DNA of 64,000 nt, from assembly GCA_046350795.1 (NCBI GenBank), contig JAXLZT010000001.1, positions 80,468 through 144,467 of the forward strand. The letters are read 5' to 3'. The position numbers and the translations under genes were made by a program. This DNA comes from Minisyncoccota bacterium (GTDB lineage: Bacteria > Patescibacteriota > Minisyncoccia > Phycocordibacterales > CALRHW01). This document shows positions 3,928 to 59,934 of the stretch, in pieces. Every line of letters begins with the position of its first letter. Within the stretch, counting starts at the first letter, position 1. Under the pieces are notes generated by a model. That model had not been told where the DNA came from and ran no database searches. It saw only the letters and a list, made by a program, of their open reading frames with translations.

Positions 3928-3956
3928 CTGAACGAAGACCTGAAAGGATGGTCCAA

Positions 3957-4421
3957 ATGAAGGAGAACGACCTAAAAATCGGGAGAAAGGTGGAAGTGAC
4001 TTCCCTTTCCAACACACAGGATTGGGGAATTGATGACCAGTACCTCGCGGGGCGCAAGCTGGGGGCCGTAGGCACAGCGCACAAGGCTGCATTCGGCAGG
4101 TGCGCTGGTCTCTGGTACATCAGGGACAACGATGGGCGACTCTCCGTCTACCACGCAGACGAGCTGAGCATCCCTCGCGCGGAGCTCGAGCTAGAGCTTG
4201 CCGAAGCCAAGAACGCCATCGAGGAGTTGATCGCAAACGTGGATAGAGCGACCAATGAGGTGCTGTACCTGACCACTGCCCTGCACCATCTCTCCAATCT
4301 TCGGAAGGGCTGGTGGCCATTTGTCGCCAAGCACAGGATCGATGACATCTTCAAGGTACTCAAGGAGGCCCGCAGACTCTTTGAAGAAAGACTTGAAAAA
4401 AGCCGTGAGAAGCCGCAGTAA
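3957..4421 (+). CDS. hypothetical protein, high-GC, coiled-coil C-terminus
   Basis: long ORF with markedly higher GC and different codon usage than neighbours; second ATG preceded by GAAAGGA. Confidence 0.55.
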   Translation: MKENDLKIGRKVEVTSLSNTQDWGIDDQYLAGRKLGAVGTAHKAAFGRCAGLWYIRDNDGRLSVYHADELSIPRAELELELAEAKNAIEELIANVDRATNEVLYLTTALHHLSNLRKGWWPFVAKHRIDDIFKVLKEARRLFEERLEKSREKPQ

Positions 4422-4542
4422 GCGAGACTCACGGCTTTCTCATTTGTCTAAAGTTTTTTAATGGTAGATAATGTATGAGGCGTTCCCGTATCGCGCATTT
4501 ATGCGCAACAGAAGTTTGGGCAACTTACTGGGAGATCACATG

Positions 4543-4818
4543 GCTACGGTGGGAGACATCGTGGAGGTCGTGGACAAAATCAAGGAGGAAAACAAGAAAC
4601 TCAAGGGGTTGGACTTCACACGAGAGCAGTGTGAACTCATCAGCAAACTTGGAGACATCGTCTTTGAGCACATCGGACTGAGAGATGTTCGACGTCCATT
4701 CGCGCTCACCATTCAGGTCAACGCAGAAGCGGAGAGTGTCTTGCACACTCTCCGGGGGTTCTTGATCCAAACACACACAGAGACAAAGAGAAAGGAGCCT
4801 GAAGGCACACTCGTGTAG
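4543..4818 (+). CDS. hypothetical protein (high-GC)
   Basis: ORF 4471-4818; start ambiguous (MATVGDIV at 4543 plausible); followed by terminator. Confidence 0.4.
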   Translation, partial: ATVGDIVEVVDKIKEENKKLKGLDFTREQCELISKLGDIVFEHIGLRDVRRPFALTIQVNAEAESVLHTLRGFLIQTHTETKRKEPEGTLV

Positions 4819-4838
4819 GCGCAAGCCTGACACACATA

Positions 4839-4880
4839 CCGACCCGTAGGAAAGAAATTTCCCGGGTCGGTTTAATATTT
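4839..4880. terminator. bidirectional terminator hairpin CCGACCCG...CGGGTCGG plus T-run
   Basis: 8-bp GC stem 4839-4846 / 4863-4870 followed by TTTAATATTTT; sits between convergent genes. Confidence 0.55.
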
Positions 4881-5438
4881 TCTAACCACACCTTTTACCA
4901 CAGCAGCGATACGAAAACTTTCTGTGGGATAAATGGGTTTGTAGTTTTTGTTGGCTGGCTCGAGCCAAACTTTACCATTTTTTGATCTGTAAAATTTCAT
5001 AGTCCACCCACCATCTACTTCCGCAATAACTATTTCACCATCGCGTGCATACTCGCGTCTCTCCGCAACCACCATGTCTCCTTCTTGTATACCTTCTTCT
5101 ATCATTGAATCACCCTTTACCTCCAACATGTAGGTTTTGCTCTGATCTTCGATAAGAAGCTCGTCTATACTCATAGTGTCTAGCTGATCCTCTTCTGCAA
5201 CAGAAGGAAAACCAGCTTCCACCAAACCAAGGACAGGGACTTGTCCAAACATATTTTTAGGAATGAGCCGGCCTTGAGAATCTTTTTCTACTATCCCCGC
5301 CTCTACCATTTTATTGATGAGTTTGTAGACAGCATTTTTAGATTTGAAACCAACGAGTGCCATGATTTCTTTGTATCCAGGCATTCGTCGATGCTTTTTA
5401 TAAAATCCTAAAATTTTTTGTTTGTATTGTTCGTTCAT
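4872..5438 (-). CDS. lexA: LexA-family transcriptional repressor (S24 peptidase)
   Basis: N-terminal winged-helix (PGYKEIMALVGFKSKNAVYKLINKM), Ala-Gly cleavage site VEAGFP, catalytic Ser in VKGDSM and Lys in TMKFYRS. Confidence 0.85.
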   Translation of the reverse strand: MNEQYKQKILGFYKKHRRMPGYKEIMALVGFKSKNAVYKLINKMVEAGIVEKDSQGRLIPKNMFGQVPVLGLVEAGFPSVAEEDQLDTMSIDELLIEDQSKTYMLEVKGDSMIEEGIQEGDMVVAERREYARDGEIVIAEVDGGWTMKFYRSKNGKVWLEPANKNYKPIYPTESFRIAAVVKGVVRKY

Positions 5439-5459
5439 TTAAATCTATTGCACTCCTGA

Positions 5460-5654
5460 TTAAAGAAACGACGCAAAGCCAAATGATCTTGTGAGCCAAG
5501 CACTGCGACGCATCTGACTGAGCTGACTGCGAAGACGCTTGTGTGCTTTTGCTTCTTTGGAATATGATTGGCCTTTTATAATTTTTAAATCTATCTGATC
5601 ATTTAGCCTTTTGAGCTCATCGTGTATTGAATATAACATTCTGTTTTTACTCAT
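5460..5654 (-). CDS. small hypothetical protein co-transcribed upstream of lexA
   Basis: 64-aa basic ORF between LexA box and lexA, same strand. Confidence 0.35.
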   Translation of the reverse strand: MSKNRMLYSIHDELKRLNDQIDLKIIKGQSYSKEAKAHKRLRSQLSQMRRSAWLTRSFGFASFL

Positions 5655-5697
5655 GTTTTTTATGTTATTAAATAATTAATCTTTATATAGAGTATAG

Positions 5698-5713
5698 GTG
5701 AACTAGGGTTCAC
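5698..5713. promoter_or_regulatory. LexA (SOS) box GTGAAC-TAGG-GTTCAC
   Basis: perfect GAAC-N4-GTTC palindrome (Cheo-box type) about 45-60 bp upstream of the lexA operon start and in the divergent promoter of the 5867 gene. Confidence 0.55.
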
Positions 5714-5866
5714 CAGTCAATGTGGACAAGATTCTAGAAAATAAAAAATGGGTGCGGTCAACTCTACCCTATTTAAATTACGAGTGTATACTTTTATACG
5801 GCGTTCACAAACATTGTGCTGAGAAACAGACCCGGTCTTGCCACTTACAAAAGGAATGGTGACACA

Positions 5867-6205
5867 ATGTCCACCGAAGAAACACCGGAATACGATTTCG
5901 AGGGCGTAGCCCACAGGGTGTACCCAGGAACAAGGACTCGCAACCCCAACATTGCACCGATCCACGTCAGGGCATTCGGTACGTGCGGAGGAATCCAGCA
6001 TCCCATTCACGCTCAGCTGTTGGGTCTCGAAAGACCACAGTCGGCCACTGACCAACGCTCTCAGCCCTCTCTCTTTGGGGATGATGAAGAAAAGAGGTGC
6101 TGTGGCAATCCATCTTGTGCAGGATCTTGTCCGCACAAGAGAGAGGGTGCCGAGATCTCCGCTGACACCGACAGCGTCAACGTCACCTCTTCGGTGAAGC
6201 ACTAG
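5867..6205 (+). CDS. hypothetical Cys-rich protein (high-GC)
   Basis: ORF 5816-6205; MSTEETPEY start likely; CCGNPSCAGSCPH motif; followed by strong terminator. Confidence 0.45.
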   Translation: MSTEETPEYDFEGVAHRVYPGTRTRNPNIAPIHVRAFGTCGGIQHPIHAQLLGLERPQSATDQRSQPSLFGDDEEKRCCGNPSCAGSCPHKREGAEISADTDSVNVTSSVKH

Positions 6206-6237
6206 CCCACATCGCGACCAACGTGGTCGCGGTACAA

Positions 6238-6283
6238 GCCCAACCCCTATGGACGGGGGTTGGGCACTTTTTTTATTTTTTTT
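6238..6283 (+). terminator. rho-independent terminator GCCCAACCCC-tatggac-GGGGGTTGGGC plus T9
   Basis: seen in sequence. Confidence 0.65.
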
Positions 6284-6299
6284 GATGTAAAATAAGTAA

Positions 6300-7376
6300 A
6301 TGGAAAAAAACACTCCACAATTTTTCACCAGAACAGAAGAAGCTTGGGATGCAATGTTGGCCGAATGCTCAAAAGCAGAGCACTCTATAGATATAGAACA
6401 ATACATCTTTACAAATGATACCGTCGGTAAACGTTTCCTAGAGACATTAATACGAAAACAAAAAGAAGGAGTGAGAGTGCGTATGATTTGCGACACAGTG
6501 GGAAGTTATTTTTTTTATAATTCACTCACCCCAGATGAACTAAGAGCAATAGGAATACAAATACAATTTTTTAATATCATAAGTCCGTGGAGGTTGCATA
6601 ATATTTTTTCTTGGTATTTTAGAGATCACAGAAAAATACTCGTTATAGACGGAAAAACAGCTATCGTCGGTGGATCTGGAATACGAGAAGATATGCGTTT
6701 TTGGCGTGACACAAATGTGAAAGTGACGGGTGCGATAGCAGAAGAAATGCAAGAAATATTTAATGAAATGTGGGTGCTTGCTAAAGAAAAAAATATATTT
6801 AAAAGAATAAACAGGTCTAGAAGAAGAAAAAAACTGCAACACATCGTTACCAATGCCCCCTACCTACGTAGACGATTTTTATATCGCAGATTTCTAAAAG
6901 AAATACGTTATTCAAAAAAATATATTTTACTAACAACGCCGTATTTTGTACCAAATCAAAAATTACTTAATGCTTTATGCTACGCTGTGCGACGTGGAGT
7001 GGATGTGCGAGTTATAGTACCAAAAACATCTGACACCATCTTAGTAAACCGCGCATCTCATAGTTTTTTCTATGATCTACTAATGGGAGGGGTAAAAATA
7101 TACCAATACCCACATTATTTTATACACACAAAGACAGCCGTAATAGACGACACATGGTCTACGATAGGTAGTTTTAATTTTGATAATCTCAGTTTCTTTT
7201 ATAATCACGAAGCAAACATAGTTTCCAACAACAAATCGTTTATTTTCCCTCTAAAAAGACACTTTGAATATGATATGGCCAAATCTGAGATGGTCACTCT
7301 AGAGAATTGGAAAAAAAGGCCTATTTTATGGAAATTTCGTGAATTTATGGTTACCCCAATAAGGCGTTTTCTATAA
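6300..7376 (+). CDS. phospholipase D-family protein (cardiolipin synthase-like)
   Basis: two HKD motifs: HRKILVIDGKTAIVGGSGI and HTKTAVIDDTWSTIGSFNFD. Confidence 0.8.
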   Translation: MEKNTPQFFTRTEEAWDAMLAECSKAEHSIDIEQYIFTNDTVGKRFLETLIRKQKEGVRVRMICDTVGSYFFYNSLTPDELRAIGIQIQFFNIISPWRLHNIFSWYFRDHRKILVIDGKTAIVGGSGIREDMRFWRDTNVKVTGAIAEEMQEIFNEMWVLAKEKNIFKRINRSRRRKKLQHIVTNAPYLRRRFLYRRFLKEIRYSKKYILLTTPYFVPNQKLLNALCYAVRRGVDVRVIVPKTSDTILVNRASHSFFYDLLMGGVKIYQYPHYFIHTKTAVIDDTWSTIGSFNFDNLSFFYNHEANIVSNNKSFIFPLKRHFEYDMAKSEMVTLENWKKRPILWKFREFMVTPIRRFL

Positions 7377-7461
7377 ATAACATCAAGCCCCGTAGCCTAT
7401 TGCTCTATTTTCAAAAGAATGCTATATTTTTGGGACGTTATCAGGTTATTTCACACATATA

Positions 7462-7971
7462 TTGAGTACCAAGGTTAGAATCAATCATCAAATAAAAGCA
7501 CCGCAATTGCGGGTTTTAAGTGCCGATGGGGAAAATTTTGGGGTTATCTCTCTAGAAGAGGCCCTAAAAAAGGCAGAATTGGCTGGATTAGATCTCATTG
7601 AGATATCGCCAAACGCTACACCACCCGTTGCAAAGATAATGGACTATGGTAAATTCCAGTACGACGATAACAAAAAGCAGAAGCTCGCAAAGGCAAAAGC
7701 TCACGTAGTGGAAGTCAAAAATATACAGGTAAAAGTAGGTACCGGCGATCACGATCTAGCTCTAAAAGCAAAAAAGGCTTCAGAGTGGCTAGAAGAAGGA
7801 AATCGAGTAAAAATAGATCTTTTTCTACCAGGAAGAACTAAATACATGGATCTAAACTTTCTAAAAGAAAGAATGGATAGAGTACTTAAGCTCATCACAG
7901 TAGAATTTAAAATCGCAGATGCGCCAAAGAAAAGCCTAAAAGGACTTACAGCAATAATAGAGAGAAAATAG
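7462..7971 (+). CDS. infC: translation initiation factor IF-3
   Basis: INHQIKAPQLRVLSADGENFGVISLEEALKKAELAGLDLIEISPNATPPVAKIMDYGKF matches IF-3; TTG (or upstream ATA) non-canonical start as usual for infC. Confidence 0.9.
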   Translation: MSTKVRINHQIKAPQLRVLSADGENFGVISLEEALKKAELAGLDLIEISPNATPPVAKIMDYGKFQYDDNKKQKLAKAKAHVVEVKNIQVKVGTGDHDLALKAKKASEWLEEGNRVKIDLFLPGRTKYMDLNFLKERMDRVLKLITVEFKIADAPKKSLKGLTAIIERK

Positions 7972-7994
7972 AAAAGTGCACAAAAATAAAAATT

Positions 7995-8180
7995 ATGAAA
8001 ACAAACAAATCATTTTCAAAAAGATTAAAGCTTACAAAGCAAGGAAAAATCATTGCTCGTAAGACTGGTCAAAACCACTTCAATTCAAAAGAGAGTGGTC
8101 GAAGTCAGATTTCAAAAAAGCGATCTGTGGGTTTTGTGATGAGTAATAAAACAAAAAGCCGATATCTGATAAACATGTAA
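7995..8180 (+). CDS. rpmI: 50S ribosomal protein L35 (bL35)
   Basis: small basic protein between infC and rplT, KTNKSFSKRLKLTKQGKI pattern. Confidence 0.85.
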   Translation: MKTNKSFSKRLKLTKQGKIIARKTGQNHFNSKESGRSQISKKRSVGFVMSNKTKSRYLINM

Positions 8181-8199
8181 TAAATTTTAAATAAAGACC

Positions 8200-8544
8200 A
8201 TGACAAGAGTAAAAAAAGGAGTAAATGCATTAAAGACAAGAAAAAATGTACTCAAAAGAGTAAAGGGTTTTAGATTTGGACGTGGAACAAAAGAGCGCCA
8301 AGCATACGACGCTATCGCCCACGCCGGAGCACACTCTTTTGCACATCGACGCGATAAGAAAAATGATATGCGAAAGCTTTGGAATGTACGTATCAATGCT
8401 GCCCTAGATCCAAAAGGTCTTTCTTACAGTAAATTTATTGGTGCTTTAAAAAAGAAAAATATTGTCATAGACAGAAAAATACTTTCTCTCCTTGCAGACA
8501 AAAACCCAGAAACATTTGATCGAATCATAGCAAAGGTAAAATAA
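8200..8544 (+). CDS. rplT: 50S ribosomal protein L20 (bL20)
   Basis: MTRVKKGVNALKTRKNVLKRVKGFRFGR...LWNVRINAA...SYSKFIGALKK. Confidence 0.92.
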   Translation: MTRVKKGVNALKTRKNVLKRVKGFRFGRGTKERQAYDAIAHAGAHSFAHRRDKKNDMRKLWNVRINAALDPKGLSYSKFIGALKKKNIVIDRKILSLLADKNPETFDRIIAKVK

Positions 8545-8576
8545 CAAAAAACCCGCAGTAAGCGGGTTTTTTGTTT
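8545..8576. terminator. terminator CCCGC-agta-GCGGG plus T-run
   Basis: seen in sequence after rplT. Confidence 0.65.
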
Positions 8577-9961
8577 TAACAAGGCAACTCGTAAGTCTTC
8601 CCCCTTTCTGGATACAGTGCATCCACTCCCACATAGTCACGCAATCTTTGAACCAAAAAAAGGCCTGATTTTGGTTCACCTAAAACAACAAAAACTTTTT
8701 TTACAGTTTTACTAGTATGTTCTACGAATTCTATTAAATGATCAGAATCCTTGTGCGCAGAATATCCAGAAATATTTTCTATTCTTGCCCTTACAGATAC
8801 GTGCTCCCCTTTTATCACCACCTCACGCACGCCATCTTGTAGTTGGCGACCAAAAGTGCCCAGCCCTTGATACCCGATAAGTAAAATAGTATTTTTTTCA
8901 TCTGGCAAATAGTGCGCTTCATGTCCCACCACTCGCCCACCATTACTCATACCAGAACCAGCAATAATTATTTTTGGATTTGGTGTATTTATAATTCCTC
9001 GAGAATCCTCGCTACGAATAACATTTTTGAGTTTTGGAAAATTAAATATATGGTCACCACCAGCAATATCCCTTCTCGTAGCCTCGTTGAAGAGTTTTTG
9101 CGAACTCTGACGTTGATATATATCTGTAATCTTTATTGCAAGCGGAGAATCTAGGTAAACCGGAATTTGCGGTACAACTCCATCTTCCATCATATTATTT
9201 ATTTTATATAAGATAATCTGTGTGCGTTCTAGAGAAAAAGAAGGAATCACGAGAACTCCTTGTTTTTTTATAGTATCTTTTATGACCGCCACAAGTTTCT
9301 TATCAGAATCAGCCTGATTTTCATGATTCCTGTCACCGTATACACTATCTAAAACAAGATAGTCTGCATCCGTAACCCACTCTGTATCCTTTAAAAGCAT
9401 AGCCGGAGAATTACCCAAATCGCCACAAAAAACGATCTTTTTACCATTGTATGAAAGCTCGTATATAGCCGAACCAAGCACGTGTCCAGCATCCTTTAAA
9501 TATACTTTAAAGTCCGGCGCGCTTAGGTTGCCACCGACCACTTTCTCCTGATGATATGGAATAGTCTGCCAAAGCGAAAAAGCTTGGTTTACATGAATAT
9601 CAAAATACATTGGCGGTTTACCATTTGCCTTTGACTCCATTTCAATAATTTTTACAGCGTCTTCTAGCATCAGACGTGCTATTTCTCTCGTCTGCTCTGT
9701 AGAATAAATAACTCCCTTAAAACCGTCTTTTACGAGTTTTGGAATTCTACCTATATGATCTATGTGAGCGTGTGTTACAAAAAGTATATCAATACTCGCT
9801 GGATCATATGAAAAATCTTTTTTATTTTCTTCTTCTGCGTACTGACTTCCCTGCATTAATCCGCAATCAACAAGTATTTTTGTCTTGTCGCTTTCTAATA
9901 AAAAGTTGGCGCCAGTCACGGTGCCCACTCCCGTGCAAAATGTAAGTTTAAGAGATGACAT
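8576..9961 (-). CDS. metallo-beta-lactamase fold, beta-CASP family RNA-metabolising hydrolase
   Basis: HAHIDHIGRIP motif, MBL fold then beta-CASP-like C-terminal region; start taken at MSSLKLTF (9961), ORF-track start 10027. Confidence 0.7.
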   Translation of the reverse strand: MSSLKLTFCTGVGTVTGANFLLESDKTKILVDCGLMQGSQYAEEENKKDFSYDPASIDILFVTHAHIDHIGRIPKLVKDGFKGVIYSTEQTREIARLMLEDAVKIIEMESKANGKPPMYFDIHVNQAFSLWQTIPYHQEKVVGGNLSAPDFKVYLKDAGHVLGSAIYELSYNGKKIVFCGDLGNSPAMLLKDTEWVTDADYLVLDSVYGDRNHENQADSDKKLVAVIKDTIKKQGVLVIPSFSLERTQIILYKINNMMEDGVVPQIPVYLDSPLAIKITDIYQRQSSQKLFNEATRRDIAGGDHIFNFPKLKNVIRSEDSRGIINTPNPKIIIAGSGMSNGGRVVGHEAHYLPDEKNTILLIGYQGLGTFGRQLQDGVREVVIKGEHVSVRARIENISGYSAHKDSDHLIEFVEHTSKTVKKVFVVLGEPKSGLFLVQRLRDYVGVDALYPERGKTYELPC

Positions 9962-10379
9962 TTTTTTTGTTAGCAAAATATAAAAATATTGCAGAAACAA
10001 CACCACCCAAAGAATCCATAATGACATCTTTTACTGTATCAAAAATATGGTCGGCTAGTGGACCATATAAAAAAGTAATACCTGTAACGTATTCGAAAAT
10101 TTCCCAAACAAAACCTATACCAATAGCAACTGTGGTAGCGACAAGTATAAAAAACTTGAGATCACTCCTTTTTGGTACAGATATATATCCAGAAAAGAAA
10201 AGAATCCATAATGAAAAATACCCAAACCAAAAACCGCCAAGAAAATGCATTAAAATATCAAACCAATCCAAAGTCCAATACAGATAATAATGTACAGCGA
10301 CCTGCTGAAGTATTCCAATAACAAGTATTATGAAAAAAAGAAACAAAAAAAGTGGTTTTTTGAGCATCATTCTTTTCAA
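9948..10379 (-). CDS. VanZ-like integral membrane protein
   Basis: 4 predicted TM helices and D-x3-D-x2-GG motif (IFDTVKDVIMDSLGG). Confidence 0.45.
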   Translation of the reverse strand: MKRMMLKKPLFLFLFFIILVIGILQQVAVHYYLYWTLDWFDILMHFLGGFWFGYFSLWILFFSGYISVPKRSDLKFFILVATTVAIGIGFVWEIFEYVTGITFLYGPLADHIFDTVKDVIMDSLGGVVSAIFLYFANKKNVIS

Positions 10380-10710
10380 TAATAACTTTTTTATCTGAAA
10401 ATTAAAACATCCGCTTTCGCGGATATCTTAATAAGGGTTACTCGAGTATATTGCCCTAGTGTTTAGCTAGGTGGGTGCCCGAAACGCTATACCAAGGTAT
10501 AGAATTATCTTTGGCTCCCTGAATATTTATTTAATCTAGATAATATCCCAAATAACCCTGTCATAATTATACGCCTGTCTACACACCATTCAATCTTTTT
10601 GCACACATTTTGCATCATTGTGATACAAATCAGAAAGAGAAGCAAGAAAAGCAACAAAAAATGGCTTCAAAAAAGAGTTAAGTGAGATTGATTTTTAAAT
10701 GTACAAAATT

Positions 10711-11328
10711 TTATTCCAAAATACCGTCTAAATTTACATCGTAAAGCATCTGCTCTGCGAGAAGTCTGTAGTCCACCACCTCTTCTGGAGAAAACCAGTG
10801 ATTTATTTCATTGTTTGCTTCCTCTACTGAGCCTGAAGCATGCACTAGATTGCGCACTGCACGTCCATCTGTATCTGACATCATGTATGAATCAAGAACA
10901 AAGTCTCCGCGAATAGTACCGACATCTGTAGAAAGTGGCTCTGTGCCTCCAGTGATCTTGCGAACAATCTTTACAGCATGTGCACCCTGCCAGACCATAG
11001 CTATCACAGGACCACTTGTCATGTATTTCTTTAAAACATCCAAAACAACTCTTGTTATTTCTAGAGGGTCTTCTGTTGTGAGAGTCTCCCCTTTTTCTTT
11101 TGCTACTTTGATGCGCTTTTCACCTGTAATGCGTCGCCACTCTGGATCTAGTGTGTAATGTTGCTCGATTTTTTCTGCTGTAGGCACCAACATTTTGATA
11201 GCTACTAGCTTGAGGCCAGCTCGCTCGTATCTTTTGATAATCTCTCCGATGAGAGTTCGTTGCACGCCGTCTGGTTTGATAATCACGAGAGTCCGCTCGT
11301 TTTTCGGATGTGAATTTTTTGTCATTTT
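10711..11328 (-). CDS. ndk: nucleoside diphosphate kinase
   Basis: ERTLVIIKPDGVQR..., NLVHASGSVEEANNEINHWF; start at MTKNS. Confidence 0.85.
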   Translation of the reverse strand, partial: KMTKNSHPKNERTLVIIKPDGVQRTLIGEIIKRYERAGLKLVAIKMLVPTAEKIEQHYTLDPEWRRITGEKRIKVAKEKGETLTTEDPLEITRVVLDVLKKYMTSGPVIAMVWQGAHAVKIVRKITGGTEPLSTDVGTIRGDFVLDSYMMSDTDGRAVRNLVHASGSVEEANNEINHWFSPEEVVDYRLLAEQMLYDVNLDGILE

Positions 11329-11462
11329 GTAAGTATAAAAGAGGGGTTTGAAAAAGACAAGTTTAAAAATCAAAAAAGTGACTCCCTCTCTAAAGCGCTT
11401 CGCTAACCCATTCGGGAATTACTTTCTTGATTTTTTTACATTATCCTTTATTATTCAAAATT

Positions 11463-12143
11463 ATGAATGACTATGTTTTACTATCAGAAAGATTCTCCCG
11501 CTTTAAAGAAATAAGTAGAGAGGAGGAAACTATAATTAATCTAATAAGACAAAACATTTTGGTCAATGAAAATTGCAAAATATTGGATATTGGTTCAAAT
11601 AGAGGTGCAATATCTCATGCCCTGCAAAAAAATACAAACAACATAACCTTAATAGATGTAGAAGATTTTGACATTAAGACAGGTGCAAGATTTTTTAAAG
11701 GAAAATGGGAAGATCTAAATCTAGATGAAAAATTTGATGTTATCCTAGCTAGTCATATTTGGGGACATTTTCATTATGAAAAAACAACAAGAAAGTCTTT
11801 CGAAAAAGCTCTAAACTCCCTTACCCCTAAAGGCAAAATAATTCTTTGTTACAATTCCAACGATGATTTTGTTGGAAAACTAGTAAATTTTTGTAATACA
11901 ATATTTAATGATTTCCAATACGATATCTTTGATGAATCATTATTGGACAATCCCAAAATAGTAAACTTTTCTTTAACATTAAAATGTAAAGATTTCGGAG
12001 AGTTGGCAGATTTAGTCCAGGTATTGATTATCGTTCCAGATACTGAATTTGAGTCTAAGAAAGCAGAGATAGAAAGTTTTTTGCGCAACAATCTGGAAAA
12101 ACCAGAATTTGCTATAAACCAAAAACTGGTAATCATTGGTTAG
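11463..12143 (+). CDS. class I SAM-dependent methyltransferase
   Basis: motif I ILDIGSNRG, acidic residue after beta2 (LIDVED). Confidence 0.6.
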   Translation: MNDYVLLSERFSRFKEISREEETIINLIRQNILVNENCKILDIGSNRGAISHALQKNTNNITLIDVEDFDIKTGARFFKGKWEDLNLDEKFDVILASHIWGHFHYEKTTRKSFEKALNSLTPKGKIILCYNSNDDFVGKLVNFCNTIFNDFQYDIFDESLLDNPKIVNFSLTLKCKDFGELADLVQVLIIVPDTEFESKKAEIESFLRNNLEKPEFAINQKLVIIG

Positions 12144-12184
12144 TAAACAAAAAGTCCGTACCCTTTTTAGTACTTTTTGTTTAC
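12143..12184. terminator. bidirectional AT-rich hairpin GTAAACAAAAAGT...ACTTTTTGTTTAC
   Basis: 13-bp inverted repeat between convergent methyltransferase and map. Confidence 0.45.
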
Positions 12185-12188
12185 TACC

Positions 12189-12959: not shown

Positions 12960-12995
12960 GGCAACAAGTGTATGAAACAAAAAGATAACTTTTAT

Positions 12996-13589: not shown

Positions 13590-13667
13590 GAGTTAAGTAT
13601 ACCAGTAGACAAGAGAAAAACATCATAGCGATTGACGCGTGCTTTTCAAATGATGTTTTTCGTTGGC

Positions 13668-14939: not shown

Positions 14940-14940
14940 A

Positions 14941-30016: not shown

Positions 30017-30041
30017 AAGTATTTTTGTTCTGTTTTATTTA

Positions 30042-30566
30042 TTAGAAAAAGAGTCGGCTAAATACAAAGAAGAAGTAAGCCAAGACGATAACAAGAACGA
30101 TACCGCCAATAGAGAAATTCCTACCCTGCTTCTTGAACACTGTATTCCCTTCTCCCTGAAGACAAGTCATTACAATGATAAATGAGCCAAAAGCGAGTAC
30201 TGCTACTGAGCCAAGAGATTTGTAAAGCACATCCTTATCAGCAATAACATCCCAAATAGCAAGTACACCAAGAAGTGCCAAAATAGCAGCTGAAATTATT
30301 AGTATTACTACAGTTACGCTTCTTATTACTTGAAAAGCTGGATTTGCTACTACTGGCATAGTGATTTCTACAGCATTTTTACTTTGCATAAACTTTCCAG
30401 CGACCATTATTACTACAGCAACCGCCGCAAGAAGACCTAGAGTCTCAAAAGATTTTACGATTACATCGCTAGCAAAGAAATCCCAAATACCCAACACTGA
30501 GATGATAGAAAGCAAAGCTACCGCACAAATAAAAATAAGCCCAGCAACGTCTTGAAGTTTTTTCAT
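30042..30566 (-). CDS. hypothetical 4-TM membrane protein with internal two-fold duplication (inserted between rpsG and fusA)
   Basis: halves LLSIISVLGIWDFFASDVIVKSFETLGLLAAVAVVIMVAG and ILALLGVLAIWDVIADKDVLYKSLGSVAVLAFGSFIIVMT align. Confidence 0.55.
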   Translation of the reverse strand: MKKLQDVAGLIFICAVALLSIISVLGIWDFFASDVIVKSFETLGLLAAVAVVIMVAGKFMQSKNAVEITMPVVANPAFQVIRSVTVVILIISAAILALLGVLAIWDVIADKDVLYKSLGSVAVLAFGSFIIVMTCLQGEGNTVFKKQGRNFSIGGIVLVIVLAYFFFVFSRLFF

Positions 30567-30609
30567 AAAAACATTTACTAATTTTTAATTATTAAAATAC
30601 TAACCAATT

Positions 30610-32546: not shown

Positions 32547-32618
32547 CAATTGAAAACCCCACGCGCAGATACGCATGGGGTCGTGATTCATGATTGCCCG
32601 GAATCAATTCGGGTCAGG

Positions 32619-33356
32619 TCAGCCCCTCTCTCCCAACAACTCTTGATCTATGGGAGAAAATTTCGCCCTCGCCACACTCCAGTAGCGTCCTGCCTCTGAG
32701 ACAAGACCAAACTTCAGAGCAGCGGCATACAGCGATGAAAACTCCCTCTTGCGGTAATAACGATGAAACGCGGCCCGACACTGCTCATCCATACTCAGCT
32801 TCTTGTCACCCAAAGAAAGTTCCGCCTTGAGCACCATGAAGGCCAAGTCAACGAGGTGGCGTTCGACCATTTCCCTGCCCAGAGACTCACCCAGATACTC
32901 GCTTCCAAGACCGAGCTCATCCCGAAGACTGTGGATGTTGCGCACGATCTCAACACCAGCAGAACGGAGGCGGTCAAAATGACGACGAAACTTGATGACA
33001 ATCTCAAGCAGGATGAAGGAGATTGCCATGGCGATGGTGTGGTATACCAACTGAAAATCTGGTTCAAAGGACCACACAACAATTCCCAAGGAGGACAAGG
33101 TCGTCCCGAACCCGAAGAGAATAATCAGCCACATCACAATCCCCAGAATGTGAAACAGTCGGTCCGCCCTCAACACACCGTCAACCGTTTGCTGAGTTTT
33201 CTCCCAGCCAATCCATCGATCGACAAGATCCCTCGACGCCAGATTCTGATTAAGAACAGATTGCAGTGTCATTACGACACTCCTTGTTGCCCAGATTGAA
33301 ATTGGTGGGGTCAGCCACATCCATTTGCAAGTGTCAGCAAGCAAAGGATACTTCAA
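32619..33356 (-). CDS. hypothetical high-GC protein with two central TM helices and helical C-terminal domain
   Basis: TM1 FHILGIVMWLIILFGFGTTL, TM2 HTIAMAISFILLEIVI; GC and codon usage differ from flanks; start ambiguous (33356/33320/33272). Confidence 0.5.
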   Translation of the reverse strand: MKYPLLADTCKWMWLTPPISIWATRSVVMTLQSVLNQNLASRDLVDRWIGWEKTQQTVDGVLRADRLFHILGIVMWLIILFGFGTTLSSLGIVVWSFEPDFQLVYHTIAMAISFILLEIVIKFRRHFDRLRSAGVEIVRNIHSLRDELGLGSEYLGESLGREMVERHLVDLAFMVLKAELSLGDKKLSMDEQCRAAFHRYYRKREFSSLYAAALKFGLVSEAGRYWSVARAKFSPIDQELLGERG

Positions 33357-33423
33357 TTTCTGATAATGCGGGCCACATTTCTCTAAAGTTGATTAAATAT
33401 CGTTTTTAGTTAAAAGTCAATGT

Positions 33424-39468: not shown

Positions 39469-39586
39469 ATAAAAGACGTATTAGACCAGACTTGACTTTT
39501 CTATAAAAAATGTTAGATTTTGCTGGTTCGTGGAAACAATTCACGACAAGCACATTCACACTTCAAATCTCACAGGAGACTGGACA

Positions 39587-40673
39587 CATGAAGAAGGTTC
39601 TTTTCGTCGCACAAGATGCGGCGCCAAGCAGGGCATTCCAGAGGTTTGCCCCTGCTTTGACTGAGGCTGGTTTTGGCGTTGAGCTCATTGTCGCTGACGG
39701 CAAGACCTTCCCGACAATCGACGGAGGCATGTCTCGAAAGGTGGGGTCTGCGGACCTACTTGTCATTGGCATGTCCTCACGACCTGAGTACGCAACGGAC
39801 GAATTGTTTGCCGCCAAGCAAGCAATCAAGTCTGGGGTGCCACTCGCCTGCTACGGTGACGTGCCAGGCTGTCATGTGCGTCACGCTTTCTGGGGGAATG
39901 ACATCTCCCGAGAGCTTTCGCTCTACCTCGGCTACAACCAAGCAGAGGAGGACGGCGTGCGGAAGTCTTTCCCAAACGCTCGTTTCCGTGCGATCGGCAA
40001 CCCACTTCGTGAGGAGATGGCATTTGCGCGATATACTCGCGAAGAGGTGCGTCTCCGTCTGGGTGTCACCCCAGATGACAAGGTCATTCTGGTGGGCGGT
40101 GGCAAGAGTCCATACAGCAACATGGTTCGTATCGGGCTCGTGCTCGAAACGATGAACATGTTGGATGGATTCCGCAAGACGCCCATCAAGGTGTTGCTCT
40201 CTCTGCATCCGGGAGACAAGGCGCCGGTCTCCAACTACGACGAAATCGTCAAGGAGAGTCCGGTGCCATTCCGGATTGCTGAGTCCATCAAGGGAAAGTT
40301 CGAGACCTCCGACATGATCGGGGGCGCCGATCTGGTCTTTTGCGGACTCACTGGTTCGACAGCCATCGAAGCCGCCTACAAGCGGATTCCGGTCATTCAG
40401 ACCGGTGGTGAGATCGAGCTTGTGAAGCTCTTCAAGGAAACCGGATCAAGGACTCCTGAAGCAGTGGCCGTTGGAGCATCATTGTTCTGCAACGGAGGAA
40501 ACTGCGGGCTCGATCTCGTAAGAGCAATGGATCTGATCTGGGGCACTGGTGTGGGAGCAAGCCTCATGAACGACCAAGCCTCCGCCTACCCGATCCCACA
40601 AAGGGTCGGGCAGGCAACGGAAAACGCTGTCAACGTAATCCGTGAATTCTTGGAAGTTCCGGCCATGGCCTGA
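39587..40673 (+). CDS. high-GC hypothetical protein, two Rossmann-like halves (GT-B glycosyltransferase / UDP-sugar epimerase-like)
   Basis: RBS AGGAGA before ATG 39587; KVLFVAQDAAPSRAFQRFAPAL N-terminus, KVILVGGGKSP and DLVFCGLTGSTAIEAAYKRIPVI in second half; about 60% GC. Confidence 0.5.
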
Positions 40674-40715: not shown

Positions 40716-40760
40716 GGGGCCGGCGCGTTTCGCGCCGGCCCTTTCTCTTTGTATTTTATT
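40716..40760. terminator. bidirectional terminator GGGGCCGGCGCG-tttc-GCGCCGGCCC plus T-rich tail
   Basis: 12-bp GC stem between convergent genes. Confidence 0.7.
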
Positions 40761-50463: not shown

Positions 50464-50469
50464 AATCTT

Positions 50470-51267: not shown

Positions 51268-51279
51268 GGCGTATTTAAA

Positions 51280-52107: not shown

Positions 52108-52116
52108 TTTTTAAAA

Positions 52117-54740: not shown

Positions 54741-54907
54741 ATAAAAACAACAAAGATTAATGTCGATTAAAATTATAGCACATTGCTCAAACTAAAATTT
54801 AGTTTTAAATCTGTTATGTGGATAATACTTGACTTATTGCTCAAATTTTGCTACTGTATTTGTATTAGAAGTTCGCCTCACGGCGGACTAATTTTTTTAA
54901 AAAATAT

Positions 54908-56050
54908 ATGTTAGATCTAAAAGTAATTCATTCAGTGCTTCATCAGCTCGAAGAAGAGCGAGGCATTCCAAAAGAGAAAATAATAGAGGCCATAGAAATG
55001 GCTCTTGCTACTGCGTATAAAAAAGAATATGGCGAAAAAGGCCAAATTGTTCGCGCTAAATTTGATATAAACTCAGGAAAAACAGAATTTTTGCAGGTGA
55101 AAATCGTCGTAGACGATACTACAGTTATAATTCCAGATAAAAATGGCGAGGTAGATTTTGAGCGTGCAGAAGCCGAAGAAAAAGATATTTTCAATCCAGA
55201 ACATCACATTCTCCTAAACGATGCTAAAAAAATCAAAAAAGACGTAGCGCTTGGCGAAGAAATGGTTTTCCCTCTAGAGGGACATGACGACTACGGACGC
55301 ATTGCTTCTCAAACAGCAAAGCAGGTCATCATCCAAAAGATTCGCGAGGCAGAAAAAACAGCTGTGCTAGGTGAATACGGCAAACAAGAAGGAACTATAG
55401 TAAACGGAACAGTTCAAAGAATGGAAAGAGGTGCAATATTCGTCGATATGGGCAGAGCTACAGGTATTCTTTCATATGAAGACCAAATTCCAGGAGAGAG
55501 ATACTCTCAAGGAGAGCGTGTCCGAGCATATCTATATAGAGTAGAAGAGACTCCTCGAGGAATCTTCCTACGACTTTCTCGTTCACATCCACAATTCCTA
55601 CAAAAACTTTTTGAGGTAGAAACTCCAGAGATCGGTGCGGGTGTAGTGCAGGTAAAATCTGTTGCCCGCGAAGCTGGTGCTCGTACAAAAATAGCAGTAG
55701 CTTCTACAGATGAGCATATTGACCCTGTCGGCTCTATGGTGGGTCAGCGTGGAGTACGCGTAAGCACAGTCATGAGCGAGCTTGGTGGCGAAAAAATTGA
55801 TATTATAGAGTGGTCAGCAGATCCTAAAAAGTTTGTTGAGGACTCTCTTTCTCCAGCAAAAGTTATTTCTGTTGAAATAGATGAGACAGAAAAGAAAGCT
55901 ACAGTAAAAGTCTCAGAAGACCAACAGTCTCTGGCTATCGGAAAAGGTGGTCAAAACGTGCGACTAGCAGCAAAGCTCACAGGATGGAAAATAGACATAC
56001 AGTCTGTGAAAGGAGAATCCGTAGCTGACTCAGAAGAAGTACAAGCTTAA
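54908..56050 (+). CDS. nusA: transcription termination/antitermination factor NusA
   Basis: N-terminal domain, S1 and two KH domains; 380 aa (no AR repeats). Confidence 0.9.
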   Translation: MLDLKVIHSVLHQLEEERGIPKEKIIEAIEMALATAYKKEYGEKGQIVRAKFDINSGKTEFLQVKIVVDDTTVIIPDKNGEVDFERAEAEEKDIFNPEHHILLNDAKKIKKDVALGEEMVFPLEGHDDYGRIASQTAKQVIIQKIREAEKTAVLGEYGKQEGTIVNGTVQRMERGAIFVDMGRATGILSYEDQIPGERYSQGERVRAYLYRVEETPRGIFLRLSRSHPQFLQKLFEVETPEIGAGVVQVKSVAREAGARTKIAVASTDEHIDPVGSMVGQRGVRVSTVMSELGGEKIDIIEWSADPKKFVEDSLSPAKVISVEIDETEKKATVKVSEDQQSLAIGKGGQNVRLAAKLTGWKIDIQSVKGESVADSEEVQA

Positions 56051-56089
56051 ATTTATCAGGGTGCATTTGCACCATAATAAAAAATAAAT

Positions 56090-56614
56090 ATGAATTTGTG
56101 GCACGATATTGCATCAGGAGAAAAAGATTCAATAAATACTATTATTGAAATCAACAAAGGTTCAAAAAATAAATATGAAATAGACAAAGAAACAGGCATG
56201 ATCGCTCTTGATCGTGTTCTCCACTCTTCCCAAGATTACCCCTTTGACTATGGCTTTGTACCACAGACTCTTTGGGATGACGGAGACGCTGTAGACGTAA
56301 TAGTCCTTACTACTTACCCGCTTTTACCTGGCATTCTAGTACGAGTACGCCCTGTAGCTATCATGGACATGGTTGATAGCGGTGAGTCAGATGCAAAAAT
56401 AATTGCTGTGCCAGTAGATGATCCTAGATGGAATGATGTAAAAGATTTAGCTGATGTAAATAAACACACCCTAAAAGAAATGGAACACTTCTTTTCAACG
56501 TATAAAAAACTACAAAACAAAGAAGTGTCAGTGCAAGGATTCCACGGAAAGGACAAAGCAGAAGAAGCGTTTTTGCGAGGAATAGAGTTATATAAACAAA
56601 AGTTTTCTAAATAA
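56090..56614 (+). CDS. ppa: inorganic pyrophosphatase (family I)
   Basis: DYPFDYGFVPQTLWDDGDAVDVIV signature. Confidence 0.92.
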   Translation: MNLWHDIASGEKDSINTIIEINKGSKNKYEIDKETGMIALDRVLHSSQDYPFDYGFVPQTLWDDGDAVDVIVLTTYPLLPGILVRVRPVAIMDMVDSGESDAKIIAVPVDDPRWNDVKDLADVNKHTLKEMEHFFSTYKKLQNKEVSVQGFHGKDKAEEAFLRGIELYKQKFSK

Positions 56615-56619
56615 ACAAA

Positions 56620-56657
56620 ACAAAAAACACCAATGCATAAGCTTGGTGTTTTTTGTT
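56620..56657 (+). terminator. terminator ACACCAA-tgcataagc-TTGGTGT plus T-run
   Basis: seen in sequence after ppa. Confidence 0.6.
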
Positions 56658-56750
56658 TGTCTAACAATTTATCTGTATAATGTAAGCAGACAAGACGCTT
56701 TCCGTCTTATTATTTAGTAGAACACGCTTATAAAATATAACTTACAAAAT

Positions 56751-57485
56751 ATGAAAAAAATTATCTATAGCTTTTTGTTTATTGCACTCGCTTTTGTTTT
56801 ATTTCCTGGTTTTTCACATGCACAAACAGGTGTTGCGCCAATGAAAAACAATTATGCTGGTAAAAAAATCGATCCACCAGGAGTAAGGCCTACCAACATG
56901 ATGGAAAAGGCACAAAACATAAAAGACACAGCCTTTGATGACAGAGTTCGACTCGCTCCAGATCTAGAAAAAAGACGTGAATTTGAAATGACAAAAGACG
57001 GTCAGATACGAGCAAAAGACGGTCAACCAGTAGGTAGACGAGAGAAACTTGGAAAACACGTTGAAATAATCACAACCAGACTAAATGCTGGTGTAATGCG
57101 ACTAGAACAAATAATCACCAGAATAGAATCTCGAAATGAAAAGATAAAATCAGAAGGAGGTGATGTTTCCGCTTCAGAAAAAGCAATAACTAGCGCACAA
57201 ACAGAAATAGAAAAGGCAAAAACAGACATCTCTTCCCTATCGACAATGTTTGAAAGTGTTGTAGAAGAATCAGATTTGTCCACAACAGAAGGAGCTGCTG
57301 CGATAAGCGCTATAAAAGCCACACAACAAGCAAATAAAGACGCACTAATGAAAATGCGCGCAACTATTCAAAGTGCGAAAGGACACCTAGAGTCTGCAAG
57401 AAAATATCTCGTAAACTCTGTTACAGTAATAAAAAGTATGCGTTCAACATCACCAACATCCGCTACGCCAGTTGAATCAATATAA
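56751..57485 (+). CDS. hypothetical secreted coiled-coil protein
   Basis: signal peptide ending FSHA-QT, charged helical body. Confidence 0.5.
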   Translation: MKKIIYSFLFIALAFVLFPGFSHAQTGVAPMKNNYAGKKIDPPGVRPTNMMEKAQNIKDTAFDDRVRLAPDLEKRREFEMTKDGQIRAKDGQPVGRREKLGKHVEIITTRLNAGVMRLEQIITRIESRNEKIKSEGGDVSASEKAITSAQTEIEKAKTDISSLSTMFESVVEESDLSTTEGAAAISAIKATQQANKDALMKMRATIQSAKGHLESARKYLVNSVTVIKSMRSTSPTSATPVESI

Positions 57486-57519
57486 AAAATTAATAATTAA
57501 TTATTAAGAAAATAAAAAT

Positions 57520-57891
57520 ATGGATATACAACAAAATGGAATGGGAATGCAAAGTGGAATGAACACACCCCCACCTACACCACAACCACCAGTAATGCCA
57601 ACAATAGAATCTCCAAAGAAAAGCCCAATTGGTCCAATGATTGGTCTAATAGTAATACTGGCAATAATAGTAGTGGGCACATTATATTTTTGGGGCCAAA
57701 GAGTAGATAAAACACAAAATGTTCAACAAAAAACAGAAACACAAACAGAAAATGTAGCACCGGTAGTGACAGACACTCAAACAGAACAGTTACAGGTTCA
57801 AAACACATCAGACGATATAGATTCAATAGACGCTGATCTAAACTCAACAGATTTTGGAAATATAGACTCAGGAGTAGAACAACTACAATAA
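57520..57891 (+). CDS. hypothetical single-TM protein (Pro-rich N-term, acidic/Thr/Gln-rich C-term)
   Basis: TM IGPMIGLIVILAIIVVGTLYFW. Confidence 0.45.
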   Translation: MDIQQNGMGMQSGMNTPPPTPQPPVMPTIESPKKSPIGPMIGLIVILAIIVVGTLYFWGQRVDKTQNVQQKTETQTENVAPVVTDTQTEQLQVQNTSDDIDSIDADLNSTDFGNIDSGVEQLQ

Positions 57892-57973
57892 ACCGCTCTC
57901 GTATTTCTTGCAAAAAATAAGCGCAGACTATACACTGTAGCCTATTATTTCATCACATTTTTTACCAAAGCAC

Positions 57974-59026
57974 ATGTCAAAAAAAGATAAAAAATATTCA
58001 AATATAAAGATATCAAACCTTGAAAACTCTGAAGTGGAGATAGAGGGAGAAATCGCTGCCGACCTACTCGAAGAGCATCGTCAAATTGTTATAAAAAAAT
58101 TGGTTAGCAGTGCGGAACTACCGGGCTTCCGCAAAGGTTTTGCTCCAGAAAATCTAGTAGTACAAAAGTTTGGTGACATGAGAATATTAGAAGACGCTGC
58201 AGAAGAAGCCTTGCATTCACAATACGTTAGTATAATCACTGATAATTCTATACAAGCTATGGGTGATCCAAAAGTAACGATCACAAAACTCGCAGTGGGT
58301 AGTCCACTTGGTTTTAAAATAAAGACTGCTATTTTCCCAGAAGTAAAACTGCCTGATTACAAATCAATCGCCAAAAAAGAAATGGCGAGCGTAAAAGAAA
58401 TCACAGAAGTAGATGAAAAAGAAATAGAGGCAATCATTGATCAAATTCGAAAATCAAAAGCAAAAGAAGGTGGTGAAGAAAAAGAAAATACCGAAGGAAA
58501 AACAGAACTTCCCGATCTTGATGACAACTTTGCCCAATCACTCGGTGACTTTAAAACAGTAAATGATCTTAAAGAAAAAATAAAAGAAAATGCTTTGTTT
58601 GAGAAGAAAATGCAAGCAAAAGAAAAGAGTAGACTTTCTATTATTGAAGCTATAGTCAAAGAGAGCGACATCACTGTGCCAGAACTCATGATAGAAAGTG
58701 AGTTTCTAAAAATGTTAGCTCAATTTAAAGACGATATCACTCGCGCAGGATTAACGTATGAGGCCTATCTTTCTCATATAAAAAAGACTGAGGATGATAT
58801 TAGAAAAGAGTGGAGAGACAACGCGATAAAGCGCGCAAAAACACAACTCATTTTGGCAAAAATAGCCAAAGAAGAAAAACTAGCACCAGATGAAGAGGTG
58901 ATAAAAAAAGAAGTAGATCATATTATTTCACACCACAAAGATGCTGACAGATATAGAGTACGAATGTATGTAGAAAATATGTTGACTAATGAGAAGGTGT
59001 TGGAGTTTTTGGAAAATCAAAAATAG
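57974..59026 (+). CDS. tig: trigger factor lacking the PPIase domain
   Basis: ribosome-binding signature LPGFRKGFAPENLVVQKFG in N-domain; 350 aa (too short to contain FKBP domain); precedes clpP region. Confidence 0.65.
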   Translation: MSKKDKKYSNIKISNLENSEVEIEGEIAADLLEEHRQIVIKKLVSSAELPGFRKGFAPENLVVQKFGDMRILEDAAEEALHSQYVSIITDNSIQAMGDPKVTITKLAVGSPLGFKIKTAIFPEVKLPDYKSIAKKEMASVKEITEVDEKEIEAIIDQIRKSKAKEGGEEKENTEGKTELPDLDDNFAQSLGDFKTVNDLKEKIKENALFEKKMQAKEKSRLSIIEAIVKESDITVPELMIESEFLKMLAQFKDDITRAGLTYEAYLSHIKKTEDDIRKEWRDNAIKRAKTQLILAKIAKEEKLAPDEEVIKKEVDHIISHHKDADRYRVRMYVENMLTNEKVLEFLENQK

Positions 59027-59259
59027 CAATAGCGTAAAAAGAGCTTTTGAAAAGCACGCGTCAATCGCTGCTGCGATTGCTGCTCCGCTCGGCGCCGTCG
59101 CGCCTGCGCGAGTCTTTTCAAAAGCTATTTTTACTTGACCCTCCTTATTTGTTTATACAAAAGAAAAAGCTCCCGGTCCGCTTGCGCGAAACCGAGAGCT
59201 TGAGATCAAAACCGAGTGATAGTGCTGTAGCCGAAGCCAGAGCACAGAACTCAGTCAAT

Positions 59260-59814
59260 TCAGTTGTTGTGTGGAGAGAAGCGACCTCCATAGCTGTCGT
59301 CCCCCGGGGACTTTCCCTTCTTCCACCAGTCAGCGGGGTCTTCTGTCTCCCTCTTGGGGCCAAACAGATTCTTGAGAAACACCCCCCAGAATCTTGCCTT
59401 GGCAGATCCAGTCTTCCTTGACTGGTGTTCTGCAACATCCGCGGCTGCCATCAGCCCAGCGGTAATCACATCCGCCAAGACGTCGTTGTCAGTGTTGATC
59501 TTCCTGGGTTCCTTCCACCGGAACGTCCAGGCCACCACAAGTCCCACCATCGCACACATCAAAGATTTGACGATCCACAACTGAGTTATGGAGAGGCCCG
59601 TGCTGGTCGGGACACCGTCGATCAGCATCGACATGCAGAAGCATGTCACGGCGACCGCCCTCACTGCATTGTTTGCCATCGTTCGCTTCCACCGAAGCGG
59701 AAGGACAAACGACACAAACAGAACGCCTGAAGAGATGAGAAACATCATAGCGGGAACGAAGGTCATGAATAGCTCCTTGTAAATCAAGTTTTTGACCACC
59801 GCATTGGTAGCCAT
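59260..59814 (-). CDS. hypothetical high-GC membrane protein
   Basis: 3 predicted TM helices, about 58% GC, start at MATNAVV (ORF-track start 59871). Confidence 0.45.
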   Translation of the reverse strand: MATNAVVKNLIYKELFMTFVPAMMFLISSGVLFVSFVLPLRWKRTMANNAVRAVAVTCFCMSMLIDGVPTSTGLSITQLWIVKSLMCAMVGLVVAWTFRWKEPRKINTDNDVLADVITAGLMAAADVAEHQSRKTGSAKARFWGVFLKNLFGPKRETEDPADWWKKGKSPGDDSYGGRFSPHNN

Positions 59815-59934
59815 ATTTACAAAACCCCCACTGATAAAGAATCTTGTAAATATGGCCACCTCACACAACAAATGTTAAAGAACCCTACTTTTATATTATA
59901 CACCTAAAATATCTACCTGTCAATAGACCATATT

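Follow-up and report, generated by a model that had tools for sequence, protein, structure and literature searches.

G+C-rich single-gene islands between housekeeping genes of a Candidatus Paceibacterota genome as probable products of gene-by-gene transfer

In a stretch of 64,000 nt (hereafter the window) from a 562 kb contig of a Candidatus Paceibacterota metagenome-assembled genome (MAG) belonging to the Candidate Phyla Radiation (CPR)/Patescibacteria (NCBI locus tags U0522_), five G+C-rich segments interrupt the AT-rich sequence. We number them islands 1 to 5 in coordinate order; together they carry six open reading frames (ORFs), as island 1 holds two (1a and 1b). Our study indicates that the islands are probably accessory genes from G+C-richer genomes which were inserted between housekeeping genes, and that the source for islands 3 and 4 was most probably other Patescibacteria. 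The initial annotation of this DNA had proposed compositionally foreign, horizontally acquired genes, and in this respect it is borne out by the shift in third-position GC content (GC3) and in tetranucleotide usage, as well as by junctions that are empty in related genomes for islands 3 and 4.

The GC content of the segments is 0.529 (3940-4830), 0.554 (5816-6210), 0.508 (32594-33360), 0.555 (39510-40673) and 0.515 (59030-59871), as compared to 0.391 outside the five segments and 0.400 for the whole window. The contrast announced by the initial annotation thus stands, whereas its figures (about 55-60% versus about 37%) were somewhat overstated with regard to the measured 51-55.5% versus 39%. 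At third codon positions the separation is complete: host ORFs of the window have a GC3 of 0.304 +/- 0.044 with a maximum of 0.400 (n=73), the six island ORFs range from 0.58 to 0.71 (z = 6.3-9.1), and no window ORF falls into the gap between both groups or forms a further outlier. Since GC1 and GC2 of the island ORFs are near the host values, the anomaly concerns the choice among synonymous codons rather than the amino-acid composition. In agreement with the claim of a codon usage unlike that of host genes, the host codon table fits island genes (-1.96 to -2.25 bits per codon) worse than a uniform one (about -1.75). Furthermore, the tetranucleotide z-scores of islands and host correlate with only 0.22, as opposed to 0.64 +/- 0.07 in size-matched host samples (more than 6 standard deviations off), so that the check by sliding GC and tetranucleotides that had been suggested also sets the islands apart. 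Hence, they combine the atypical composition, codon usage and oligonucleotide signature by which horizontally acquired genes are recognized. The long antisense ORFs mentioned earlier are likewise present, for example at 4148-4432(-), 4525-4833(-), 5717-6496(-), 32763-33299(+) and 39777-40208(-).

Comparison with related loci, of which 80 were fetched with RecJ as query, revealed the insertions more directly for islands 3 and 4. The gap between the HIT and pgk genes spans 0-40 bp in five relatives (L017, L018, L019, L022, and L030), whereas in the window and in L016 it is occupied by the island 4 unit of 1.29 kb. The spacer between ComEC and L28 amounts to 46-78 bp in L019 and L023, and to 900 bp, comprising island 3, in the window; in L017, the same junction is filled by 2.3 kb with a different GC-rich gene (Band_7) in opposite orientation. 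Since the next-closest genomes lack islands 3 and 4 at the corresponding junctions, both represent insertions. Inserts of at least 500 bp were found at each of three junctions in about a third of the species (37-53 related species), most of them having a host-like GC content and only few being GC-rich (L017, L044). These junctions are therefore general landing sites across Paceibacteria, and the window stands out through cargo which has not yet drifted to the host composition.

We propose that accessory genes would be acquired singly or in pairs from G+C-richer genomes and inserted into short spacers between conserved housekeeping genes of this 39%-GC Paceibacterota genome, each insert arriving as a complete transcription unit from promoter to terminator. 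The route would be DNA uptake, with subsequent recombination relying on the conserved flanks as anchors. The inserts would be young, such that their synonymous codon usage has not yet drifted to the AT-rich norm of the host, and islands with relatives (3 and 4) would most probably derive from Patescibacteria of 50-60% GC.

In architecture, each island is a self-contained unit, displaying a sigma-70-like promoter site, a leader of 60-120 nt, a Shine-Dalgarno sequence, the coding sequence, and one or two G+C-rich hairpins with T-rich tails. Island 1 begins with a promoter-like site (TTGACA-17-TATTTT, 3863..3891, + strand, a consensus match only), followed by the coding sequences of 1a (3957..4421, +; U0522_00490; 154 aa, GC 0.56, GC3 0.70), whose product is soluble and helix-rich, and of 1b (4471..4818, +; U0522_00495; 115 aa, GC3 0.64). 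A hairpin read from the sequence (CCGACCCG...CGGGTCGG, 4839..4870) with a T-rich tail separates 1b from the convergent lexA. Island 2 holds a putative Cys-rich ORF of 112 codons (5867..6205, +; GC 0.55), or 129 codons from a GTG at 5816, and its unit is closed by a terminator-like hairpin of 11 pairs (8 G-C) and a T run (6238..6265, +). The gene of island 3 (32619..33272, -; U0522_00710; GC3 0.59) encodes 217 aa from ATG 33272 with two predicted membrane segments, and is preceded by a conserved region (33273..33385, -) discussed below. In island 4, a TG-extended promoter-like site (TTGACT-16-TAGATT, 39492..39519, +), which is conserved in L016, precedes a coding sequence of 361 aa with a predicted GT-B fold (39588..40673, +; within U0522_00745; GC 0.56, GC3 0.63), and a hairpin of 12 pairs (11 G-C; 40716..40742) is common to island 4 and the convergent pgk. 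Island 5 encodes 184 aa as annotated (59260..59814, -; U0522_00835; GC3 0.67) with three predicted membrane segments, downstream of a promoter-like site of perfect consensus (TTGACA-17-TATAAT, 59895..59923, -); an alternative start at ATG 59766 (168 aa) is preceded by AAGGAG. The better starts are 39588 for island 4, 33272 for island 3 (as annotated), and perhaps 59766 for island 5. Hairpins and promoter-like sites hence flank each unit, as expected from the earlier statement that the islands are bounded by terminators or host genes; for island 3, the strict rule of the terminator scan returned none, and its hairpins are visible only by eye.

Hallmarks of genomic islands, that is a mobility gene, flanking repeats or insertion at the 3' end of a tRNA or transfer-messenger RNA (tmRNA) gene, are not displayed by the islands. 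Neither an integrase nor any other mobility gene was found in or beside any of them among the window ORFs or by Pfam and PHROGs, and no att-type or direct repeats were found at their borders. Integration at the tmRNA gene was considered and discarded, as this gene is intact, its 3' end is not duplicated, and flanking repeats are absent. A cassette-like insertion was dismissed as well, because no common border motif was found across the islands. Control of the islands by the SOS response was also rejected: the sole GAAC-N4-GTTC box of the window sits on the promoter of the lexA operon, and one match is expected by chance.

Because the source sequence is a metagenome-assembled genome, one might suspect that fragments of higher GC were stitched into the contig during assembly or binning, and Logan contigs indeed break repeatedly near 59093-59100. 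Yet, the exact protein of island 1b is encoded by at least 16 contigs of separate sequencing runs as well as by a second NCBI MAG, and the contigs bearing it align at 98.9-99.96% over islands 1 and 2 and their flanks. Islands 3 and 5 likewise recur in independently assembled samples (~99% identity), and on L016, a contig of 86% identity, island 4 is co-linear with RecJ and HIT. Identical junctions were thus assembled many times over, and promoter-like sites and terminators of host style lie exactly at the island borders. We therefore dismiss an assembly artefact, the likelihood of chimerism being practically negligible. A second suspicion concerns structured non-coding RNA genes, since GC peaks in AT-rich genomes often correspond to RNA genes, and the tmRNA gene of the window (3023-3429), which adjoins smpB and encodes the predicted tag peptide ANALVTKAKIVSPFFGQKDFAFAYALA, forms exactly such a peak. 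We regard this explanation as very unlikely for the set as a whole. Five of the six island ORFs (1a, 1b, 3, 4, and 5) follow the codon pattern GC3 > GC1 > GC2, and the variable sites of island 1a among conspecific strains are distributed 2/2/9 over the codon positions (n=13), which fits a coding sequence under purifying selection. Moreover, islands 3 and 4 have protein homologs, the structural model of the latter is confident, and no Rfam family matched any island, neither at gathering thresholds nor with permissive filters. At most island 2 could be an RNA: its ORF has a flat GC1/2/3 of 0.55/0.52/0.59, is called by the gene caller of no assembly, and ends in a strong terminator, whereas its RNA fold z of about -3 on both strands includes the terminator hairpins and is hence non-discriminating. 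On the other hand, its own frame is the best of six, by a small margin, when scored with a codon model derived from the other islands, and the "Cys-rich protein" of the initial annotation can be recognized, the ORF having 5 Cys in 112 aa, including CCGNPSCAGSC. Island 2 therefore probably encodes a small Cys-rich protein, an untranslated transcript being the alternative.

The break point at 59093-59100 deserves a separate remark, as all Logan contigs of the species (at least 8 runs) end there, which is the site of the trigger-factor terminator and of the 3' end of island 5. Either GC-rich palindromic hairpins stop de Bruijn assembly or the population is polymorphic at this border. For islands 1, 2, and 5, look-ups of the exact ClpP, L20, and trigger factor proteins retrieved only conspecific contigs and no sister species. 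Two GC-rich spots were furthermore missing from the list of the initial annotation, namely the tmRNA gene and the spacer between the divergent ftsH and smpB genes (2174-2501), whose GC reaches 0.55. Both strain contigs that cover this spacer (L006, L008) are free of variable positions in it, as compared to 35 in 1941 nt of the adjacent ftsH. RNA folding of the spacer gave z = -2.7 (minus strand) and -1.8 (plus strand), and Rfam gave no match. A structured RNA that escaped annotation or a long leader may be located here.

Island 4 offers the most detailed view of the cargo. About 30 homologs were detected, every named one being patescibacterial, and the family is scattered over Patescibacteria in differing genomic contexts: in L001, L003, and L004, the homolog is located among NeuB, CMP-sugar transferase, capsule-synthesis, and glycosyltransferase genes, while that of L118 is flanked by dCMP deaminase and ClpP. 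An AlphaFold2 model based on a 31-sequence alignment (predicted local distance difference test (pLDDT) 91.5, predicted template modelling score (pTM) 0.88) shows two Rossmann-like halves, with the alternating strands and helices of the two beta/alpha/beta domains that define the GT-B fold. Foldseek retrieved 316 PDB matches at E <= 1e-3 with this model, led by MurG, MshA, BshA, and many UDP-GlcNAc 2-epimerases (E about 1e-10), thus supporting the "GT-B-like protein" of the initial annotation. In addition, the family profile matches CapG (4.6e-7) and the E. coli UDP-GlcNAc 2-epimerase (5e-3), and Epimerase_2 is reached by 3 of the 31 homologs (best E 6e-4). The window protein itself has no Pfam or NCBIfam match, and while its model shares the fold of two Rossmann domains with UDP-GlcNAc 2-epimerase/CapG, MurG, and MshA/BshA, it differs from them in having just 12-16% identity to any solved structure and no Pfam family. 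According to the model, island 4 would encode a GT-B-fold enzyme, be it an epimerase or a transferase, whose family has to date been encountered exclusively in Patescibacteria. Considering the predicted fold and the three homologs residing in NeuB/CMP-sugar/glycosyltransferase clusters, this enzyme probably modifies a surface glycan. Contig L118 (40% GC, CPR) additionally contains a GC3-rich (0.62) ORF of 146 aa without a Pfam family (806-1246), close to a type IV secretion system (T4SS)-pilin-like gene and a phage-type integrase.

The remaining proteins are far more isolated. Among 5.8 billion clusters the sole match of island 1a was itself, and its single-sequence AlphaFold2 model (pLDDT 48) is unusable; weak helical, coiled-coil-like matches are nevertheless in line with the "soluble coiled-coil protein" proposed before. 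Islands 1a, 1b, and 5 belong to no Pfam, PHROG, PADLOC or NCBIfam family, and none of the six island proteins matched PHROGs, PADLOC or NCBIfam. With 0 PADLOC families for all six, they do not qualify as known anti-phage defence genes. Hydropathy profiles gave two and three hydrophobic segments for islands 3 and 5, respectively, matching their description as 2-TM and 3-TM (transmembrane) proteins. Islands 3 and 5 are thus likely small membrane proteins, and 1a and 1b small soluble helical ones. The designation "orphan proteins" is appropriate for most islands, which lack detectable relatives, but too strong for islands 3 and 4, for which homologs were found.

Island 3 has four representatives among 1.84 billion proteins, and a metagenome scan with its family led to a single locus, L099, on a groundwater CPR-like contig, where the gene is placed between holB and frr and has the GC content of its contig (about 0.46). 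Although the two proteins share just 26% identity, some 100 nt preceding the window gene (33273-33385(-)) are conserved at the nucleotide level with L099 (1790-1910). This stretch, which has no Rfam match, comprises a GTGG-loop-CCAC element and the Shine-Dalgarno-like AAGGAGTGTC; the latter lies in different reading frames in island 3 and L099, and two further members of the family yield the translation 'MWLTPPI' from the upstream stretch. From its sequence, the region would be either a cis-regulatory leader or an N-terminal extension.

Where did these genes originate? The island 4 homologs of L001, L003, L004, and L118 do not differ from their neighbouring genes in GC3, implying that the family is at home in CPR genomes of various GC; enrichment is confined to the window, L016, and L117, which carries the nearest non-syntenic copy. 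According to the well-known relation between GC3 and genome GC, a donor with a GC3 of 0.6-0.7 would have a genome of roughly 50-58% GC. The fetched relatives include such Paceibacteria, with 55-60% GC and a mean GC3 of 0.69 (L043, L048, L072, L078, and L094).

A donor outside the CPR, for instance an actinobacterial or other host of a presumed episymbiont, had been raised as a speculation by the initial annotation. It would account for islands that are GC-richer than the genome, most of which have no relatives and so leave their source open, and occasional non-CPR donors, including one Actinomycetota event, have been described (PMC12455944). However, the named relatives of island 4 are all patescibacterial, and the one relative of island 3 with available DNA, L099, is on a CPR-like contig. 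Besides, the GC3 of the islands is well below the value expected from the GC3/genome-GC relation for a donor of 65-72% GC, and homologs from a well-sampled donor phylum would be expected among the clusters in which island 1a found none. Examining the taxonomy of best matches, as had been advised, thus keeps those of islands 3 and 4 within the CPR, by which the transfer itself survives and the exotic donor falls; we judge the latter to be quite improbable. An origin as remnants or morons of CPR phages or as cargo of other mobile elements is unlikely in our view, even if genes derived from phages are typically small orphans, tmRNA, which is often used for integration, precedes island 1 by ~500 bp, and the gene following tmRNA is swapped between strains. 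In fact, apart from the negative PHROGs result, tblastn with the five proteins other than island 4 found no relative in 50,697 phage (INPHARED) or 72,556 plasmid records, and IMG/VR contained none of islands 1b, 4 or 5, a weak negative given that CPR phages are poorly sampled. The lack of an integrase, of att-type repeats, and of a duplicated tmRNA 3' end also argues against such elements.

A less expected result emerged from the comparison of island 4 with L016. Between both loci, the gene has a synonymous divergence (dS) of 0.32, a nonsynonymous divergence (dN) of 0.111, and an omega of 0.35, while the flanking genes have a dS of 0.93 and dN of 0.036 (RecJ) and a dS of 0.65 and dN of 0.032 (HIT). 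Raw distances at 4-fold sites are accordingly 0.219 [0.16-0.28] for island 4, 0.479 [0.41-0.55] for RecJ, and 0.38 for HIT, and the change occurs as a step at the island border, with no gradient. The island 4 proteins are nevertheless only 82.7% identical, compared with 94% for RecJ. Under AT-biased mutation, one would expect accelerated rather than reduced divergence of a neutral GC-rich insert. As a lead from one gene and one comparison, the shortfall could reflect passage of island 4 between lineages after their split or constrained synonymous sites.

One could go further and assume that the high GC3 is actively maintained, be it by selection on synonymous sites at the RNA or codon level or by a GC-rich pool of CPR accessory genes which re-seeds the same junctions of related genomes time and again. 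Apart from the low 4-fold distance despite lower protein identity, this would agree with three paralogs on contigs L028 and L073, 41-50% identical, which all have a GC3 of 0.67-0.75 in low-GC hosts, and with L117, the nearest non-syntenic homolog of island 4, being GC3-enriched in its own host, too. In its broadest form, low-GC Paceibacteria would share a pool of GC3-rich, CPR-specific single-gene units with own promoters, passed again and again among related species at a few fixed core-gene junctions, whose GC-rich sites are either selected or renewed by gene-specific sweeps. If true, the shared pool would account for a neutral-site divergence of island 4 below half that of its flanks, although its protein evolves three times faster. 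Still, maintenance of GC3 is argued from the comparison of a single island with a single relative. Host-like GC prevails among the inserts at these junctions, as does host-like GC3 among the homologs of island 4, both of which plain drift predicts, and an exchange of the island after the lineages had split would explain the low synonymous divergence without selection. For now, both the maintained GC3 and the shared pool appear doubtful to us.

Several observations weigh against the insertion of young genes from G+C-richer genomes as we propose it. The divergence of island 4 at 4-fold sites is below that of its flanks, which an old single insertion followed by neutral drift would not predict. 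The two halves of the island set share no common tetranucleotide signature, so that one common donor for all islands is not supported (the samples being small), and no donor lineage emerged from the comparisons. The empty-site comparison covers islands 3 and 4, and the wide homolog searches cover islands 1a, 3, and 4, with 1a matching itself alone. Finally, with no mobility genes, duplicated tmRNA end or common border motif, the route of insertion is solely inferred. A leave-one-out codon model of the islands was moreover only slightly better than a plain GC3-matched model.

Other parts of the window and of its relatives vary as well. Next to tmRNA, the window has a DUF4406 (nucleoside deoxyribosyltransferase-like) gene (within 3429-3862), where L007 (8712-9392) and L109 carry an NT5C nucleotidase gene on the opposite strand, meaning that the gene directly following tmRNA is swapped between conspecific strains. 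A methyltransferase ORF (11427-12143) of host-like GC within 11342-12188 is missing in L006, L008, and L010. Between rpsG and fusA (30019-30609), an ORF of 174 aa (30042-30566), with host-like GC and no Pfam family, is absent in L097 and L017 and present in L030. The aforementioned paralogs of L028 (7916-8635) and L073 (12008-12679 and 14714-15394) match no Pfam family and occupy each a different core-gene junction, in hosts with a GC3 of about 0.30. Lastly, the sole Gram-positive-type LexA box of the window (GAACTAGGGTTC, 5700-5711) overlaps the promoter-like site of the orf64-lexA operon (5654-4872, -), and island 2 is transcribed divergently from the spacer holding this site. The position of the box suggests autoregulation of lexA, bearing in mind that one chance match is expected.

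Gene transfer of this kind is not without precedent. In 125 Patescibacteria genomes, hundreds of islands and individually transferred genes were reported, with 83% of the detected transfers occurring between Patescibacteria (PMC12455944, mSystems 2025). Those events resemble ours in phylum, in proceeding gene by gene and mostly from CPR to CPR, in envelope and glycan functions, and in their detection by atypical composition. In contrast, the inserts of the window are single-gene units of ~0.4-1.3 kb, below the size most island finders report, are mostly orphans with no recoverable donor, and use junctions that are re-used across species. Classical genomic islands share the atypical GC and the patchy distribution, and island 1 is close to a tmRNA gene as well; they are, however, gene blocks with an integrase and flanking repeats, whereas the units described here lack these and contain one gene each. 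Bacterial ORFans, which according to Daubin and Ochman (2004) are reportedly short, fast-evolving, and usually AT-rich relative to their genome, are likewise comparable with regard to short length, little or no homology, and elevated dN/dS (0.35 for island 4), but the islands are GC-rich versus their host, as for a 39%-GC recipient sampling a GC-richer pool.

Thus, the islands are probably a fresh instance of a known event, namely the ordinary gene-by-gene transfer already described for Patescibacteria. The known picture is confirmed and unchanged by them, the synonymous shortfall of island 4 being the one result worth following up. For the annotation of CPR pangenomes, they are useful and carry a warning, as these GC peaks are genes and not RNAs. 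As a set, the islands may constitute strain- and species-level variation of the cell envelope. Above all, they show at the resolution of single genes how a very small CPR genome gains accessory genes: small, complete transcription units enter re-used junctions between housekeeping genes without recognizable mobile-element machinery, and their cargo leans towards envelope and glycan functions.

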